Of a stretch of 28,424 nucleotides of DNA, positions 3,072-22,071 are shown piece after piece; the first letter of the stretch is position 1, and every line of letters begins with the position of its first letter. This DNA comes from an uncultured Gammaproteobacteria bacterium (GTDB taxonomy: Bacteria > Patescibacteriota > Microgenomatia > Daviesbacterales > UBA10151), in the NCBI GenBank assembly GCA_964560075.1, contig CAZLKE010000007.1, positions 474 through 28,897 of the forward strand, in the 5' to 3' direction. Below the pieces are notes generated by a model. It searched no databases, was not told the DNA's origin, and was given only the letters and a program-made list of their open reading frames with translations. A program made the position numbers and the translations under genes.

Positions 3072-3863
3072 TCAATCTATTAATCTCATTAATTGACCGG
3101 TTTTTTTAACATAATTAAACATATTAAAAAATAAAGCAATTGATAAACTCAACCAAACGATATTTAAAAAGAAAGCCGAAAGTAAATTTTCCATAGGCAA
3201 TTGCCCCAATAATACCACACTTCTCATTCCTTCAAAAACATGAGTTACAGGAATTATATAAGCTACTGCCTGAAGTACTGCTGGTAAAACACTTACCGGA
3301 TAAAATACAGCAACAAAGGGTTGCAAAAGAACTGTTAGAGCAAAAGCCAAAACTTGGGCGCTTTGACCAAACCTCATAACAATAGATGTAGCAATTAACC
3401 CCAAAATCCAACCATATAAAAATAGATTTAAAATAAATGGAACAAGAAATAAACCAAATATAAAAATATTAAATTGAAAAAGTAAAAATGCCGTGATGCT
3501 AGTAATAAACCCAATTAAAAATAACCTCACAAAACCTACAAAAACAGTTGCTGCTAAAAACTCAGAGAGTCTCAGCGGAGTTACAAAGATATTTAATAAG
3601 TTTCTCTCCCAAACCTCTTCTAAGAAAGCAATAGACACTGCTTGCTGAGATCTTTGAACAAAATTCCAAAAGATTAATGCTCCAAGTATTATTGGAACAA
3701 CTAAAGGCACACCTTGTCTAAATTGACTCAAAAAAACTGTCAAAAACCCCCAAAGTAAAATGTCAACAATTGGCCAAAAAACTATATCCAAAATTCTTGG
3801 CACAGAGCGAGGATATAGATATAAATATCGAAGTAACATGGAATAAATTCTATTCCAATTCAT
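3072..3863 (-). CDS. ABC-2 type transporter permease
   Basis: About six hydrophobic segments, EEVWERNLLNIFVTPL (EAA-like loop), FYPVSVLP, adjacent to an ABC ATPase. Confidence 0.9.
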   Translation of the reverse strand: MNWNRIYSMLLRYLYLYPRSVPRILDIVFWPIVDILLWGFLTVFLSQFRQGVPLVVPIILGALIFWNFVQRSQQAVSIAFLEEVWERNLLNIFVTPLRLSEFLAATVFVGFVRLFLIGFITSITAFLLFQFNIFIFGLFLVPFILNLFLYGWILGLIATSIVMRFGQSAQVLAFALTVLLQPFVAVFYPVSVLPAVLQAVAYIIPVTHVFEGMRSVVLLGQLPMENLLSAFFLNIVWLSLSIALFFNMFNYVKKTGQLMRLID

Positions 3864-5148: not shown

Positions 5149-5391
5149 ATGAAGTTTTATTATACATACGTACTAAAAAGTATAAAGGATCAAAAGCTAT
5201 ATATTGGTTCTACTGGTGATATTAAGGAAAGATTTAAAGCACATAATCAAGGAGAGGTGAAGTCAACTAAAAACAGAAGACCATTTAACCTAATTTATTT
5301 TGAAGCATGCCAAGATAAAAAGCAGGCAGAAAAAAGAGAAAAATATTTTAAAACAGGTTATGGAAGAAAATTTTTGAGAGATAGAATATAA
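5149..5391 (+). CDS. small GIY-YIG nuclease (SLX1/UPF0213-like), 80 aa
   Basis: YTYVL...LYIGST...R...HN.G...ST..RRP...YFE...A..RE. ATG at 5149 lies 6 nt after TATAAT (5137-5142). The stop ends 1 nt before tRNA-Lys. Confidence 0.9.
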   Translation: MKFYYTYVLKSIKDQKLYIGSTGDIKERFKAHNQGEVKSTKNRRPFNLIYFEACQDKKQAEKREKYFKTGYGRKFLRDRI

Positions 5392-7327: not shown

Positions 7328-7350
7328 AAAAGGCGACCCCCCCCGAGGCT
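7328..7350 (+). repeat. dispersed repeat AAAAGGCGACCCC-N3-CGAGGCT, copy 1
   Basis: AAAAGGCGACCCC-CCC-CGAGGCT; same frame as the copies at 13729-13751 and 14154-14176 (reverse). Confidence 0.8.
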
Positions 7351-10474: not shown

Positions 10475-11040
10475 AAAGAGTAGTAATTGTCCATTGTTGG
10501 GAAGGATACCCTAAATATTGTTGGTATCCAGAGGTGAAAAAAGAATTAGAAGATGAAGGTTTTGAAGTAAAAGTTCCAGCAATGCCGGAAACTGATTTTC
10601 CTAAACTCTTTTTATGGATCCCTAAGTTAAAAGAAATTGCTGATGAGCCAAGCGAAGATTTATATTTGATAGGTCATAGTGTTGGTGTAATTACTATTTT
10701 AAGATATTTAGAGCACTTGGAAGAGGGTAAAAAAGTTGGCGGTGTTGTAATGGTAGCTGGATTTACAGATGATTTAGATTATGAAGAATTAAAAAACTTT
10801 TTTGAAACTCCAATTGACTTTGAAAAAATAAAAACAAAATCCAAACACTTTACAGCGATTCATTCTGACAATGACCCTTATGTTTCTTTAAGGCATGGAG
10901 ATATTTTTAAAGAAAAACTTGGAGCAGAATTAATTGTAAAGTACAACATGGGACATTTTTCTGGCCCGGTAGATGATACAAAAAGTGTAACCTCTCTTCC
11001 TGAAGTAGTAGAAGCTATTAAGGAAACGTCAGGAGAATAG
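10471..11040 (+). CDS. RBBP9/YdeN family alpha/beta hydrolase
   Basis: IVHCW, GHSVG nucleophile elbow, HSDNDPYV (Asp), GHF (His). Confidence 0.88.
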   Translation: MKRVVIVHCWEGYPKYCWYPEVKKELEDEGFEVKVPAMPETDFPKLFLWIPKLKEIADEPSEDLYLIGHSVGVITILRYLEHLEEGKKVGGVVMVAGFTDDLDYEELKNFFETPIDFEKIKTKSKHFTAIHSDNDPYVSLRHGDIFKEKLGAELIVKYNMGHFSGPVDDTKSVTSLPEVVEAIKETSGE

Positions 11041-13724: not shown

Positions 13725-13751
13725 GCACAAAAGGCGACCCCTTGCGAGGCT
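13725..13751 (+). repeat. dispersed repeat copy 2
   Basis: GCACAAAAGGCGACCCCTTGCGAGGCT; 26/27 identical to the reverse complement of 14154-14180. Confidence 0.85.
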
Positions 13752-14151: not shown

Positions 14152-14802
14152 TTAGCCTCGAAAGGGGTCGCCTTTTGTGCTTACTTTTATGCCAATAAAT
14201 TTCCCCAGATTAAAACTCTTTCTGTGGAGATCGCATAAACCTAACTTGCCTATGGCATCTCTGTGGTCTTTTGTTCCATAGCCTTTGTGCCTTGCAAAAC
14301 CATAACCTGGAAAATCACCATCTAGTTTACTCATTAACTCATCCCTATAAACCTTGGCAATAATTGAAGCTGCTGCGATGGACACAGAAAGTTTGTCTCC
14401 GGCTTTAATTGGGTTTTGGATACTTTTATCCAACCCCTGAATATGAAAAGCATCTATCAGAAAAAATTCCGGGTAATTTTTTAGGCAGTTAACCGCATTT
14501 AAAAAAGCCAGTTGAGTTGCTTTCCCTATGCCAACCTCATTTATAGTTTCTACATCAATCTCTGCAATGGCAAAATCTAGGGCTGAAGCTTTAATTTCAT
14601 CAGCAAGTTTTTCTCTTTTACTTGGTTTAAGAAGTTTTGAATCTGCAATACCATCAGGAACTTTTGAATCAGGAGAAAAAATTACAGCTCCAGCAACCAC
14701 CGGCCCGGCAAAACAACCCCGACCTACTTCATCAATACCACACACAAGAGTCTTTCCTTCATTCCATAACTTATACTCATAACCAAGCGTCGCATAAAGC
14801 AT
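14152..14802 (-). CDS. rnhB: ribonuclease HII
   Basis: GIDEVGRG, DSK, IDA, GD..S.SIAAASIIAKVYRD, GY...KGYGT, HRKSF. The last codons derive from the dispersed repeat. Confidence 0.95.
   Translation of the reverse strand: MLYATLGYEYKLWNEGKTLVCGIDEVGRGCFAGPVVAGAVIFSPDSKVPDGIADSKLLKPSKREKLADEIKASALDFAIAEIDVETINEVGIGKATQLAFLNAVNCLKNYPEFFLIDAFHIQGLDKSIQNPIKAGDKLSVSIAAASIIAKVYRDELMSKLDGDFPGYGFARHKGYGTKDHRDAIGKLGLCDLHRKSFNLGKFIGIKVSTKGDPFRG
14154..14180 (-). repeat. dispersed repeat copy 3, inside the rnhB 3' end
   Basis: Minus strand GCACAAAAGGCGACCCCTTTCGAGGCT encodes (S)TKGDPFRG and the first base of the TAA stop. Confidence 0.85.
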
Positions 14803-18834: not shown

Positions 18835-19092
18835 ATGATAGAAGTTATCAATTCAAAAAAGATTGCCGGCGAATTAGGTCTTCACCGCCCTGCTATGTGG
18901 AAAAGGGTTCTTGAATCTCTTAGTCTCAGGGAGGTAACACCTGTAGATATTTGTCCAAAATACAATTTAGGTAGATTATACGCCTATTTTCCAGATCTAA
19001 TGGGAGATAATACAGCAATTGGAATTGGAGATGATGGAATGTGCCAATCCTGGCGAGGTCACAGGAGATGGTATCGGTCTTTACTCGCTTAA
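18835..19092 (+). CDS. hypothetical protein
   Basis: 85-aa ORF; ATG 7 nt after TG-G-TAAAAT (18819-18827). Confidence 0.55.
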   Translation: MIEVINSKKIAGELGLHRPAMWKRVLESLSLREVTPVDICPKYNLGRLYAYFPDLMGDNTAIGIGDDGMCQSWRGHRRWYRSLLA

Positions 19093-20400
19093 TAGCTTTT
19101 CCAAGATTTGCCTTAGTTTAGAAGTATCGGCTTTACCACCAGTTTTTCGCATCACATTACCGATAAAGGCTTGCAGGATTGTAGTTTTGCCTGCCTTGTA
19201 AGCTAATACGAACTGAGGACTCTCTTCAATTGTTTCTTTAGCTAACTTAGTCAGAGTCTCTTCATCTTCGATTATTCCTAACTTTTTACTTAAAATAACT
19301 TCAATAAGAGCTAGTGGTGTGGTTTTTTGGAAATCAACTTTTTGGTTTACGATATAGTTCGCAACTTGGCTTTCAGTCACATCTTTATCTTTACCAATAG
19401 TCACAGCATCCTCAAAAAAATTTGCTAAATTTTTGTTTTCAGTTAGAATTGAGGCATTAGCTTTTGAGATTTGATACTGCTGCACAAATCTCTTCATTTT
19501 TTCGTGAGGTAACTCAGGCGTTTCTTGCTTGGCTTTTAACTCTAGGTTCTGCAGTCTCATTTCAGGCAAATCTGGTTCAGGGAAATAGCGATAATCATGA
19601 GCTTCTTCTTTAGTTCTTTGAACATAAGTTTGTCTTTTATCCTCATCCCAACCTCTAGTTTCTTGGACTAACTTCTCTCCTTTTTCTAAGCTTTCAGTCT
19701 GACGCTTGATTTCATATTCCACAGCCTGAGCCATAAATCTAAACGAGTTAATATTTTTTAACTCTACCCGGTAATTTGGTAACTCTTTTTGGCCCACTGG
19801 GCGAACCGAGATATTAGCTTCAAGCCGCATATCTCCATGCTCCATATCAGCATTGGATACTCCTAAATATCTAAAAATTTGCTGGAGTTTTTTGGCGTAA
19901 TCTTTAATTTGAGCTGTATCTGTAAAATCCGGTTCTGTAACTATTTCAACTAGGGGTACATCTGAGCGGTTGTAGTCAATCAGAGTTTCATTTCCAGAAT
20001 GCATTAATTTCCCAGTATCCTCTTCCTGATGAGCCCTGTTAATTCTTACTATTTTTACTTCTCCTTTTTCATTCTCAACTTCAATCCAACCATTTATAGC
20101 AATTGGCAAAACAAGCTGAGAGATCTGATAACCTTTAGGCAGATCTGGGTAGAAGTAGTTTTTGCGCTCAAAGTAGCTTACTTTATTAACAGAGCAATTC
20201 AGGGCTAAACCAATTTTGATACAGTTTTCTATTGCTTGCTCATTTATATAAGGAAGCGCTCCGGGAAGACCTAAACACACAGGACAGGTGTGAGTGTTTG
20301 GTTCTTTACCAAAATAATCCGCGCTGCAGCGGCAAAACATTTTAGTTTTGGTATTTAGTTCTACATGGATTTCAAGCCCCATCACTGGTTCGTATTTCAT
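19081..20400 (-). CDS. gatB: Asp-tRNA(Asn)/Glu-tRNA(Gln) amidotransferase subunit B
   Basis: MGLEIHVEL, CPVCLGLPGALP, RKNYFYPDLPKGYQISQ, EIVTEPD, DYRYFPEPDLP. ATG at 20400 overlaps the gatA TGA. Confidence 0.97.
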   Translation of the reverse strand: MKYEPVMGLEIHVELNTKTKMFCRCSADYFGKEPNTHTCPVCLGLPGALPYINEQAIENCIKIGLALNCSVNKVSYFERKNYFYPDLPKGYQISQLVLPIAINGWIEVENEKGEVKIVRINRAHQEEDTGKLMHSGNETLIDYNRSDVPLVEIVTEPDFTDTAQIKDYAKKLQQIFRYLGVSNADMEHGDMRLEANISVRPVGQKELPNYRVELKNINSFRFMAQAVEYEIKRQTESLEKGEKLVQETRGWDEDKRQTYVQRTKEEAHDYRYFPEPDLPEMRLQNLELKAKQETPELPHEKMKRFVQQYQISKANASILTENKNLANFFEDAVTIGKDKDVTESQVANYIVNQKVDFQKTTPLALIEVILSKKLGIIEDEETLTKLAKETIEESPQFVLAYKAGKTTILQAFIGNVMRKTGGKADTSKLRQILEKLLSE

Positions 20401-21785
20401 AATTTTGGTTTCTCCTTGTACCAATCTGTTGATTTCTCATATACTTCACCAACATTTAAGATCGTTTCCTCATCCATATATTTTCCAAGTATTTGCAATC
20501 CAACTGGTAAGCCGTCCACAAAACCGCATGGAACAGAAAGTCCTGGAATACCGGCTAAACTGGCTGGAATTGTATAAACATCTGATAGATACATCATTAG
20601 TGGATCTGAAATCTTCTCTCCCAAATTCCAAGCAACAGTTGGTGAAACAGGTCCGACAATAACGTCGCATTTTTGGAAGGCTTTCTCAAAATCCTGTTTA
20701 ATTAAAGTTCGAACCTTAGCAGCTTTTGTAAAATAAGCTTCATAATATCCGCTAGACAGAGCAAAAGTACCCAACATAATTCTTCTTTTTGTTTCATCAC
20801 CAAAATGGTCTCTAGAATTACCAAATCTAATTCCGTCAAACCGAGCAAGATTTGAAGAAACTTCAGAGAACATCATGGTGTAATAAACTTCAACAGCGTA
20901 CTGGGTATGAGGTAAACTGATCTCCACAACCTCAACACCTAATTTAACCATTTGATCTATAGCGTTCCGGACAACTTTTTCAACATTTTTATCTAACCCC
21001 TCTCCGAAATACTCCTTAGGCACACCAATCTTGATTCCTTTAAGAGATTGCCGCGTCGGTCGCCTGAGGCGACCTCCTCGCAATGACGTCATTGCGAGAC
21101 CACGCAGTGGCGAAGCAATCTCGACGACATTTGAATCATATCCATCTGGTCCAGAAATCCATTCTAAAACTAACCTTGCATCTGCAACTGTCTTTGTAAA
21201 TGGACCAATTTGATCCAAAGATGAAGCCATAGCAATTGATCCATATCTTGAGACCCTTCCATAGCTTGGCTTAAGTCCAACAACCCCAGTTAAAGAAGCA
21301 GGCTGGCGGATAGAACCTCCAGTATCTGTTCCTAAACTAAACACACATAAATCGGCTGCAACGGCTGCAGCAGATCCGCTTGATGAACCTCCCGGTACTT
21401 TAGTTAAATTCCAAGGATTCTTTGTAGGTCCATAAGCAGAATTTTCTCCGGATGAACCCATAGCAAATTCATCATTGTTTAATTTCCCAATTATGTTTAC
21501 GTTTTGGGATTTAAGCTTTTTAATGACTGTTGCATCATAGGGTGGAATAAAATTACTCAAAATTTTAGATCCTGCCGTAGTTTTTATCCCCTGAGTACAA
21601 ATTATATCCTTTATTCCTGATGGTATGCCCTTAGTTTGATTCACAACCTCTAAAAAAGCATTAAGCTTTGGATTTAACGATTGAATTCTTTTTAGATAAG
21701 CTTCATTTAACTCTGATTCAGAGAACTTATTTTCTTTGAGGGCATCTATAGTTTGCAGTAAAGAAAGCGAAGTTAAATCACTCAT
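20397..21785 (-). CDS. gatA: amidotransferase subunit A, carrying an in-frame palindromic element
   Basis: IKD, GKLNNDEFAMGSS, PGGSSSGSAAAVA, GTDTGGSIRQPA, SSLDQIGP. Likely start MSDLT at 21785 overlaps the gatC stop. Confidence 0.96.
   Translation of the reverse strand: MSDLTSLSLLQTIDALKENKFSESELNEAYLKRIQSLNPKLNAFLEVVNQTKGIPSGIKDIICTQGIKTTAGSKILSNFIPPYDATVIKKLKSQNVNIIGKLNNDEFAMGSSGENSAYGPTKNPWNLTKVPGGSSSGSAAAVAADLCVFSLGTDTGGSIRQPASLTGVVGLKPSYGRVSRYGSIAMASSLDQIGPFTKTVADARLVLEWISGPDGYDSNVVEIASPLRGLAMTSLRGGRLRRPTRQSLKGIKIGVPKEYFGEGLDKNVEKVVRNAIDQMVKLGVEVVEISLPHTQYAVEVYYTMMFSEVSSNLARFDGIRFGNSRDHFGDETKRRIMLGTFALSSGYYEAYFTKAAKVRTLIKQDFEKAFQKCDVIVGPVSPTVAWNLGEKISDPLMMYLSDVYTIPASLAGIPGLSVPCGFVDGLPVGLQILGKYMDEETILNVGEVYEKSTDWYKEKPKL
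21044..21122. mobile_element. 79-nt bipartite palindromic element (RPE/REP-like) inside gatA
   Basis: GAGATTGC...GCAATCTC terminal inverted repeat, perfect 22-bp central palindrome CTCGCAATGAC|GTCATTGCGAG (21077-21098), internal hairpin GGTCGCC-TGA-GGCGACC (21058-21074). Confidence 0.8.
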
Positions 21786-22071
21786 TTTCAAATACTCCTT
21801 TTGTGGCAAAAAATCCATTCTTTTTTAAGCTTGCATTTTGAAGAGCCCCTTCCTGAGTCAAGCAATCTTTAGGAACATCTTCTGCCATGACACTAACTAC
21901 CTCAGACACATTATATGTAGAAGCTACTCCAGTCGTATCAACCTTATTCAGCTGGTCGATATAATCTAAAATTTTAGAAAGCTGATCAGAATATTCTTTA
22001 GTTTCTTCTTCAGTTAAAGGTAAATTAGCAAGTTTCGCTACGTGTTTGACCTGAGTCTCTGACAACTTCAT
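21778..22071 (-). CDS. gatC: amidotransferase subunit C
   Basis: VKHVAKLANL, ILDYIDQL..VDT, AL.NA....GFF; directly upstream of gatA. Confidence 0.95.
   Translation of the reverse strand: MKLSETQVKHVAKLANLPLTEEETKEYSDQLSKILDYIDQLNKVDTTGVASTYNVSEVVSVMAEDVPKDCLTQEGALQNASLKKNGFFATKGVFENE

Follow-up and report, generated by a model that had tools for sequence, protein, structure and literature searches.

How does a palindromic DNA element come to be read as protein inside a core enzyme of a bacterium with a very small genome? This question was raised by a 79-nt element that lies in frame within the amidase gene gatA of a 28,424-nt stretch of DNA (hereafter the window; contig CAZLKE010000007.1 of assembly GCA_964560075.1, positions 474 to 28,897). 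The host is an ultra-small groundwater bacterium of Candidatus Daviesbacteria, represented by a 1.03-Mb metagenome-assembled genome (MAG) of 86 contigs that is 98% complete. We consider it highly probable that the element consists of two copies, with facing tags, of a hairpin repeat of the CGTC-tagged repetitive extragenic palindrome (REP) kind, now known as Ssn-related motifs (SRMs), and that the repeat is linked to a small nuclease gene.

The original prediction, made from the letters alone, had described a GC-rich element of two units with an 8-bp terminal inverted repeat, a 22-bp perfect palindrome and a triloop hairpin, and without target duplication. All of these parts were found where they had been placed (Table 1), and no target duplication was visible between the flanks (...AATGTCGTC and CTTAAAGGA...). 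On the minus strand the element begins with GAGATTGC and ends with GCAATCTC, the two arms of the 8-bp inverted repeat. The 22-bp palindrome had one match in the window and appeared in 0 of 100 shuffles. Local GC content was 0.54-0.59 at the element and about 0.30-0.45 elsewhere in gatA. The RNA fold of the 79 nt reached -43.6 kcal/mol, compared with -26.3 +/- 3.0 for shuffled sequences (z -5.8; 0/200 shuffles as good), and the DNA fold gave a z of -5.4. When translated in the sense of gatA, unit R1 reads EIASPLRGLAMT and unit L2 reads SLRGGRLRRPTRQS; the variable core of L2 has no second copy in the genome. An Rfam search of window positions 20800-21400 returned no family.

The 11-mer GTCATTGCGAG, which opens both units, had 63 exact matches in the genome and none for the reversed control; with up to one mismatch allowed, the numbers were 111 and 5. 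A unit was defined as this head followed by a tail that pairs with head bases 4-8 and then by C. By this definition the family is genome-wide, with 108 units of 26-46 nt at 65 places. Each unit is built of (C/T)GTC, a 5-bp stem that begins with AT, a variable inner hairpin, the second stem arm, and C. The stem is maintained, because head and tail change together (ATTGC/GCAAT in 88 units, ATCGC/GCGAT in 15, ATTCC/GGAAT in 4, and ACTGC/GCAGT in 1). The module between the arms varies in sequence and in length (10-30 nt) and is often a perfect small hairpin. The base that precedes GTC was C in 72/108 units and T in 33/108, and the stem was followed by C and then T in 93 units and by C and then C in 14, with CCA in only 3.

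Pairs with tags outward and a spacer of 7-25 nt made up 33 of the 65 places, and single units another 26. Simple tags-inward pairs without a spacer were found at only two places, one of them gatA. At the canonical tags-outward pairs, too, no target-site duplication was seen. Eight copies of an identical 73-nt pair share a further 31-36 nt or so on each side, which makes a composite element of about 140 nt. Two paralogous long open reading frames (ORFs) without a Pfam domain hold three to four in-frame units near their N-termini, and these clusters include nested units, in which a head is interrupted by a second complete unit. Among the matches listed, units with the same exact ends also occurred in Alpha-, Gamma- and Deltaproteobacteria, Chloroflexi, Cyanobacteria, Bacteroidota, Planctomycetota, Zixibacteria, Firmicutes and Patescibacteria.

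Two ORFs adjacent to repeats were found to start with KGYVYIL, a signature of GIY-YIG nucleases. A PF01541 search of the genome gave ten matches, and three of these lie exactly between inverted units with tags outward: two intact genes and one decayed copy (Table 1). The two intact proteins cover positions 1-76 of the 78 of PF01541 and have this single domain. Homologues of 94-99 aa that are 60-77% identical occur in many phyla, and candidate homologues number about 8000. In five lineages that were inspected, namely Thermodesulfovibrio hydrogeniphilus, Deferribacter thermophilus, and MAGs of Levybacteria, Omnitrophota and Planctomycetota (together loci L217, L220, L221, L222 and L130), units of this family flank the homologue, usually just before its start and just after its stop. 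The CGTC tag and this association with a small GIY-YIG nuclease gene had been missed in the original prediction. A different small GIY-YIG gene (80 aa, PF01541 66 bits) lies at window positions 5149-5388 next to tRNA-Lys; it is not flanked by CGTC units and is part of another hairpin set.

The family was also found in frame in other conserved genes. At least 15 places lie within 13 conserved genes, that is, long ORFs with clear Pfam domains: RarA/MgsA, DnaX, a heavy-metal P-type ATPase, alanyl-tRNA synthetase, TatD, a class-I aminoacyl-tRNA synthetase, a WecG glycosyltransferase, a MurD-like ligase, a methyltransferase, a UvrD-like helicase (UvrD_C), a Kelch/SH3 protein, a LamG protein, and GatA itself. 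Five further places are within long ORFs that have no domain. The MurD-like orthologue of genome G020 has six residues where the host genome has 31, which is a clean empty site. In RarA of a genome of the same genus (G001; C3, L206), the place of the repeat pair is taken by an AT-rich segment of about 23 residues (39% GC compared with 56% in the host) that shares a few residues with it, and this segment looks like a decayed repeat that has become ordinary coding sequence.

The closest known relatives of the family are the CGTC-tagged REPs, including RPE-4 and RPE-6, two of the Rickettsia palindromic elements (RPEs), and dRS3/NTS of Neisseria. The CGTC-tagged REP superfamily takes in Neisseria dRS3 and the RPE-4 and RPE-6 of R. 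conorii (Di Nocera, De Gregorio & Rocco 2013, PMC3733652). Its repeats have an end tag, stems starting with AT and a short tail; tags-outward pairs predominate, copies are read in frame within genes for replication, repair and tRNA synthetases, and no transposase is tied to them (PMC3733652). The present family shares the end tag CGTC (or TGTC) and the AT-starting stem and may share the short tail; its tags-outward pairs predominate and tags-inward ones are rare; and known genes contain it in frame, as single units and as pairs, with 20-30 residues added. Unlike the 8-9 bp stem and 4-5 nt loop of the CGTC-tagged REPs, its 5-bp stem encloses a hairpin module of 10-30 nt, and its tail is CT/CC instead of the consensus CCA. 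Its unit was not listed in the supplement of PMC3733652, nor is the Candidate Phyla Radiation (CPR, Patescibacteria), to which the host belongs, among the five phyla listed there. The spacer-less tags-inward pair of gatA is an arrangement that was called rare for CGTC repeats (PMC3733652).

The bracketed genes of predicted nucleases match, as far as sequence can tell, the published Ssn nuclease/repeat system. SsnA of N. meningitidis has 94 aa and binds the 28-nt NTS solely as single-stranded DNA (Chenal et al. 2025, PMC11893778). The NTS consists of CGTC, ATTCCCGCG... and C, and SsnA cuts a few bases upstream of it (PMC11893778). Cutting and binding by SsnA depend critically on GTC and on the C that follows the palindrome, and the layout NTS-ssnA-NTS is like that of an insertion sequence (PMC11893778). 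The present system likewise has a single-domain GIY-YIG gene of about 95 aa between inverted hairpin repeats, and these repeats begin with CGTC-AT, end with C after the palindrome, and have dispersed gene-less copies. As with Ssn, whose gene-less copies number hundreds per genome, nuclease and repeat are found together across phyla. GTC before the palindrome and C after it were present in all 108 units, a count that is partly circular since the unit definition required both; independent support for these bases comes from the enrichment of the 11-mer (63 vs 0) and from the units beside the nuclease genes. Unlike the NTS, the repeat here reads ATTGCGAG...GCAAT. A term search of the main text of PMC11893778 found no mention of intragenic copies or of CPR. 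Literature searches by sequence motif yielded unrelated primer matches only, and searches that combined CPR or Patescibacteria with RPEs or with palindromic repeats found nothing.

Rickettsia has been known since 2000 to have proteins with translated palindromic repeats inside them, and Ogata et al. reportedly described such elements in 2000 and 2002. The present copies resemble them as palindromic repeats that a small genome translates in frame where its core proteins are exposed to solvent. Unlike the present family, RPE-1 to RPE-3 are longer (about 100-150 bp) and unrelated in sequence. An NCBIfam search (E up to 10) with the gatA repeat peptide and four other in-frame copies matched no family, and so none of the RPE domain models such as RPE1, which we take to be part of NCBIfam. 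The hosts differ as well, Rickettsia being an intracellular alphaproteobacterium and the present host a free-living or episymbiotic groundwater bacterium of the CPR. RPE-4, -6 and -7 share the end ATGAC, and Rickettsia orthologues hold different repeat groups at the same place, which poses a dilemma between a hot spot and a common origin (Matsutani et al. 2013, PMC3767692); the same question arises at the gatA linker. The original prediction had pointed to a likeness to Rickettsia repeats, and this was right in kind, as RPE-4 and RPE-6 count among the CGTC-tagged REPs (PMC3733652) and have the ATGAC end in common (PMC3767692). Its main claim, that a dispersed palindromic repeat of the RPE type is translated in frame in a loop of a core enzyme, is supported.

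Several points weigh against tying the family to the CGTC-tagged REPs and to an Ssn-like nuclease. The stem and loop sizes are outside those of the four described CGTC families. The published degenerate SRM search pattern fits 0/108 units and had two unrelated matches genome-wide; because no unit fits it, the family would have escaped the Ssn survey. NCBIfam gave the nuclease only a weak match to TIGR01453 (group-I-intron endonuclease), and a PDB search with it gave only a weak match to UPF0213 (E 0.026). Among 120 repeat places sampled in other phyla, a nuclease gene lay within 8 kb at only two, a rate that is expected for gene-less copies and yet is no proof of a link. Ssn is not known to have any mechanism of transposition or copying. 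The activity demonstrated for SsnA is that of a nuclease that modulates transformation, not that of a transposase (PMC11893778). For the gatA copy in particular, the insertion can be read only from relatives of at most 76% identity, because the search for an empty gatA allele within the species gave none, the nearest GatA being 76% identical.

At the protein level, the gatA ORF runs through the element in frame and reads EIASPLRGLAMTSLRGGRLRRPTRQS between GPDGYDSNVV and LKGIKIGVPKEYF. The insert has 26 residues, numbered 233-258 when translation starts at the ATG at 21818 and 222-247, as originally predicted, when it starts at the ATG at 21785. The product passes as a GatA on the TIGR00132 model (545 bits, cut-off 481) and matches solved GatA structures at E 1e-136. 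Its Ser-cisSer-Lys residues K70, S146 and S169 are invariant across 120 homologues, in agreement with the prediction of intact amidase motifs. No glutaminyl-tRNA synthetase scored above the cut-off in the 98%-complete genome, and together with the single gatA this suggests that GatCAB is presumably indispensable in this organism. In an AlphaFold2 model of GatA (mean pLDDT 89.3, pTM 0.91) the flanks of the loop were near 97, while residues 224-262 were coil and residues 239-252 had a pLDDT below 50. Coil of such low confidence within an otherwise confident model indicates that the insert occupies a predicted flexible loop.

Alignment with relatives showed what the insert did to the linker. The stretch from DSN to LKG has about 14-17 residues in thirty relatives of the same family and class (around 16) and 28 in the window GatA, a net gain of 12. 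From GPDG to KEYF, 91 of the 120 nearest GatAs, drawn from a collection of 5.8 billion proteins, have 34-39 residues, and the window GatA has 49. A net gain of 12 although the repeat encodes 26 residues fits a loss of most of the native linker, in which about 14 native residues would have been lost while the 26 were gained. The original prediction had proposed that the element replaced the linker rather than simply being inserted into it; this is consistent with the lengths only. Apparent element-less 'skips' among matching contigs were rejected as candidates for an empty allele; they were short mismatched pieces of other organisms. Most likely, the insert is tolerated as a passenger and has taken the place of most of a variable linker; the Arg-rich loop or an mRNA hairpin may have a functional role, but this has no support.

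The gatA linker appears to be a hot spot for units of this family, since other Daviesbacteria GatAs that are 70-77% identical have related units at the same linker. Neither this nor the rarity of the spacer-less tags-inward arrangement had been noticed in the original prediction. The same tags-inward pair as in the window is found in P0010, P0033 and P0040, and a first unit plus a remnant of the head of the second, without net gain in length, in P0004. In P0012 the pair has its tags outward and is read in another frame (VIA...KQS...EIAS...RND), single units are present in P0005, P0053 and P0008, and further GatAs have peptides typical of other CGTC-type repeats (RLRGND, VIPAEAGIH). The palindromes were confirmed in the DNA of the related gatA genes; the variable core of the first unit is alike in four lineages, and the second unit differs among them. 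The case that had been named as fatal to the prediction, relatives having the same peptide without DNA palindromes and no other copies in the genome, was contradicted.

Whether the insert is an old functional part of GatA, kept by selection as an Arg-rich loop, a contact to tRNA or a partner, or an mRNA hairpin, has to be weighed against this distribution. The same peptide (EIASPLRGLAMTSLRG...) does stand at the same place in GatAs that are only 70-77% identical (P0010, P0033, P0040, P0004), and the RNA fold is very stable. The element is also far better conserved than the rest of the gene: over 16 shared element codons the DNA is 92-96% identical, compared with 68-72% over the rest of the genes, and third codon positions outside the element are 42-50% identical between the same genes. 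However, this conservation can stem from the repeat system itself, because the same sequence type is widely dispersed as a common repeat, R1-type units being found at many non-gatA places in 17 other Daviesbacteria genomes. The insert is absent from most GatAs of Daviesbacteria, the sister P0002 among them, other lineages have other arrangements or other repeat types at the linker, the loop is predicted to be disordered, and the same units are found in unrelated proteins. In a tree built without the linker columns the carriers were scattered and the starred branches forced at least four changes, but an approximately unbiased (AU) test did not reject a single carrier clade (p 0.21), a result that counts in favour of function. 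All in all, we regard selection for function as improbable. The data fit either a single old insertion that was lost many times or a hot spot at which insertion or conversion occurred repeatedly.

We also considered that native S-L-K-G codons resembling the head of a unit act as a pseudo-target that attracts insertion. This idea was rejected because in relatives without the repeat only 5-8 of the 13 bases agree with the head. Relatives have other in-frame inserts in GatA (L033, the gatA of G008; L031 and L036; P0040 and P0076). One, of 23 residues, is at the same linker (NAKHSVARLPKTGTAGQAGGPQG). Another, of 7 residues, comes directly after KEYF (A[LV]PAG[SR]Q, GLPAGRQ, AASAGRQ) and resembles a different short palindromic repeat of the CCTGCCGGCAGG type. 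In G020 (L022), another Daviesbacteria genome, a tags-inward junction of the same repeat lies just 5' of the gatA start and a tags-outward pair just past its stop (Table 1). The gatCAB operon seems to attract the repeats of this family.

REP doublets (REPINs) and the REP-associated tyrosine transposases (RAYTs) have reportedly been described by Nunvar in 2010, Bertels & Rainey in 2011, and Ton-Hoang in 2012. The units could accordingly be REPINs moved by a RAYT, a Y1 transposase like those of IS200/IS605, instead of being linked to a GIY-YIG nuclease. Like REPINs, they are short hairpin repeats in inverted doublets with a spacer, dispersed in copy numbers from tens to hundreds, and as with RAYTs, one or a few enzyme genes are bracketed by the repeat. 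The genome does contain two RAYT-like genes (PF01797, 46 and 31.5 bits; NF047646, 38 and 55 bits, below the cut-off of 80), and counts of Y1 genes and of the 11-mer were weakly correlated over 61 genomes (rho 0.25, p 0.05, uncorrected for kinship). However, CGTC units are near neither Y1 gene, and the RAYT-like gene on contig C2 is flanked by, and contains, a different repeat (...AAAGGCGACCCC...). Eight genomes with at least four Y1 genes have no 11-mer at all. The tag is CGTC, not GTAG, the bracketed gene encodes a GIY-YIG nuclease and not a Y1 transposase, and the literature ties no transposase to CGTC REPs (PMC3733652). With the genes flanked by another repeat and the correlation weak, RAYT as the mover was rejected except as a minor and very improbable rival.

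The repeat at that C2 gene is a second dispersed family (core ...AAAGGCGACCCC...GAGGCT) with 19 matches in the genome compared with 3 for the control. Its copies flank the RAYT-like Y1 gene, one lies inside it, and the family may be the REP of this gene. It has an 8-mer, AGGCGACC, in common with unit L2, which we treated as chance.

That the element is an artefact of assembly or binning, for example a repeat-induced chimera, was considered because the MAG is in 86 contigs, several contig ends coincide with the family's repeats, and unitigs of other runs stop at the centre of the palindrome; it can be dismissed almost entirely, as frame and GatA homology run on at both sides of the element, at least five assemblies, made from several samples of groundwater and soil, encode the identical 473-aa GatA, the whole region is covered by a single contig, each junction is matched with zero mismatches by contigs of runs from other studies, although these break at the palindrome centre, and related gatA genes of other assemblies have the same structure. 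The element is confirmed as real. No RNA run on record contained this DNA. In the 90% cluster of this GatA the insert is kept in 4/4 members, one of which has a single Leu-to-Val change in the palindrome, and among the matching contigs there was no same-strain contig without the element. The insert is fixed in every assembly of this population. Many contigs of the MAG end in or beside a unit (Table 1), and the CGTC units are a main cause of its fragmentation.

Table 1. Location of the features discussed. Positions without a contig are those of the window; C numbers are contigs of the host assembly unless G020 is named.
Feature	Position	Strand	Remarks
79-nt element, two abutting units with facing tags	21044..21122	-	no spacer; encodes residues 233-258
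Unit R1	21088..21122 (C7:21561-21593)	+	plus strand: GTCATTGCGAG - hairpin CCAC/GTGG - GAAGCAATC + TC
Unit L2	21044..21087 (C7:21519-21560)	-	gatA sense: GTCATTGCGAG - GA - 7-bp triloop hairpin - GACGCG - GCAATC + TC
22-bp perfect palindrome	21077..21098		two abutting heads; CGTC tags overlap by CG (GACGTC)
Variable-module hairpin of unit L2	21058..21074	-	GGTCGCC-TCA-GGCGACC; 7-bp stem, triloop
Second, smaller hairpin	21100-21110		CCAC-TGC-GTGG
gatA, intact	20397..21818	-	473 aa (462 aa from start 21785); ORF; TIGR00132; sole gatA in genome
gatC	21778..22071	-	upstream in gatCAB operon; PF02686
gatB	19081..20424	-	downstream in gatCAB operon; PF02934, PF02637
GIY-YIG gene, intact	C25:10660-10950		97 aa; PF01541 at 10672-10893, 60.5 bits
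GIY-YIG gene, intact	C44:3295-3579		95 aa; PF01541 at 3352-3573, 58.3 bits
GIY-YIG copy, decayed	C46:5122-5193		between inverted units
Identical 73-nt pairs	C4:31945, C14:4428, C14:7874, C14:17136, C15:14121, C18:4029, C34:6969, C43:1181		eight copies
In-frame unit clusters in paralogous ORFs	C43:216-322, C61:4122-4277		L054, L058
Contig ends in or beside a unit	C6:29798, C12:46-82, C21:32-57, C22:21-54, C28:17-26, C29:1-26, C60:4679, C77:3220-3253
Tags-inward junction at gatA start of G020	G020 C26:1076-1097		L022
Tags-outward pair past gatA stop of G020	G020 C26:2500-2600		L022
Second dispersed repeat	7328-7350, 13729-13751, 14154-14180; C2:30692-31837 (at the RAYT-like gene)		L015

Returning to the reading of the insert as two nuclease-linked CGTC repeats, we propose the following course of events. 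The nuclease would recognise the units of the family, binding a unit in single-stranded DNA and cutting a few bases before the tag, as shown for SsnA. The bracketed nuclease gene would be the self-sufficient form, like NTS-ssnA-NTS of Neisseria, and the short pairs would be its gene-less derivatives. Cutting, recombination or gene conversion may spread, renew or homogenise the copies, and within genes only stop-free copies that keep the frame and lie in tolerant loops would survive selection. As a side effect, the insert would provide an essential gene with a target site for the nuclease on each of its two strands. A bolder version is that the GIY-YIG nuclease and its bracketing hairpins form an active mobile element that crosses phyla, whose gene-less pairs enter the same loops of essential genes again and again, the gatA linker being a hot spot, and are kept uniform by nuclease-driven repair or gene conversion. 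We regard this version as rather unlikely. If it were true, it would supply the long-missing enzyme and mechanism for the 'protein-coding palindromes' of the Rickettsia type, with a minimal 1-Mb genome as test bed.

The event itself is of a known kind, as in Rickettsia; the repeat family and the host phylum are new. Also new is the direct link of in-frame palindromic repeats to an Ssn-like nuclease, which gene neighbourhood suggests. One family is seen here in three states: bracketing a tiny nuclease gene, as about 60 gene-less copies, and in frame in at least 13 conserved genes. CGTC-tagged repeats had earlier been described without any enzyme of their own, and the published search pattern misses the family shown here. 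The phenomenon of protein-coding palindromes is tied in this way to the Ssn nuclease system, and both are extended to the CPR. The finding matters when CPR genomes are annotated, because these repeats give rise to Arg-rich 'inserts' of core proteins and to many spurious small ORFs. It also bears on assembly, in which the repeats cause contig breaks, and on the ways in which essential proteins acquire new loop sequence.

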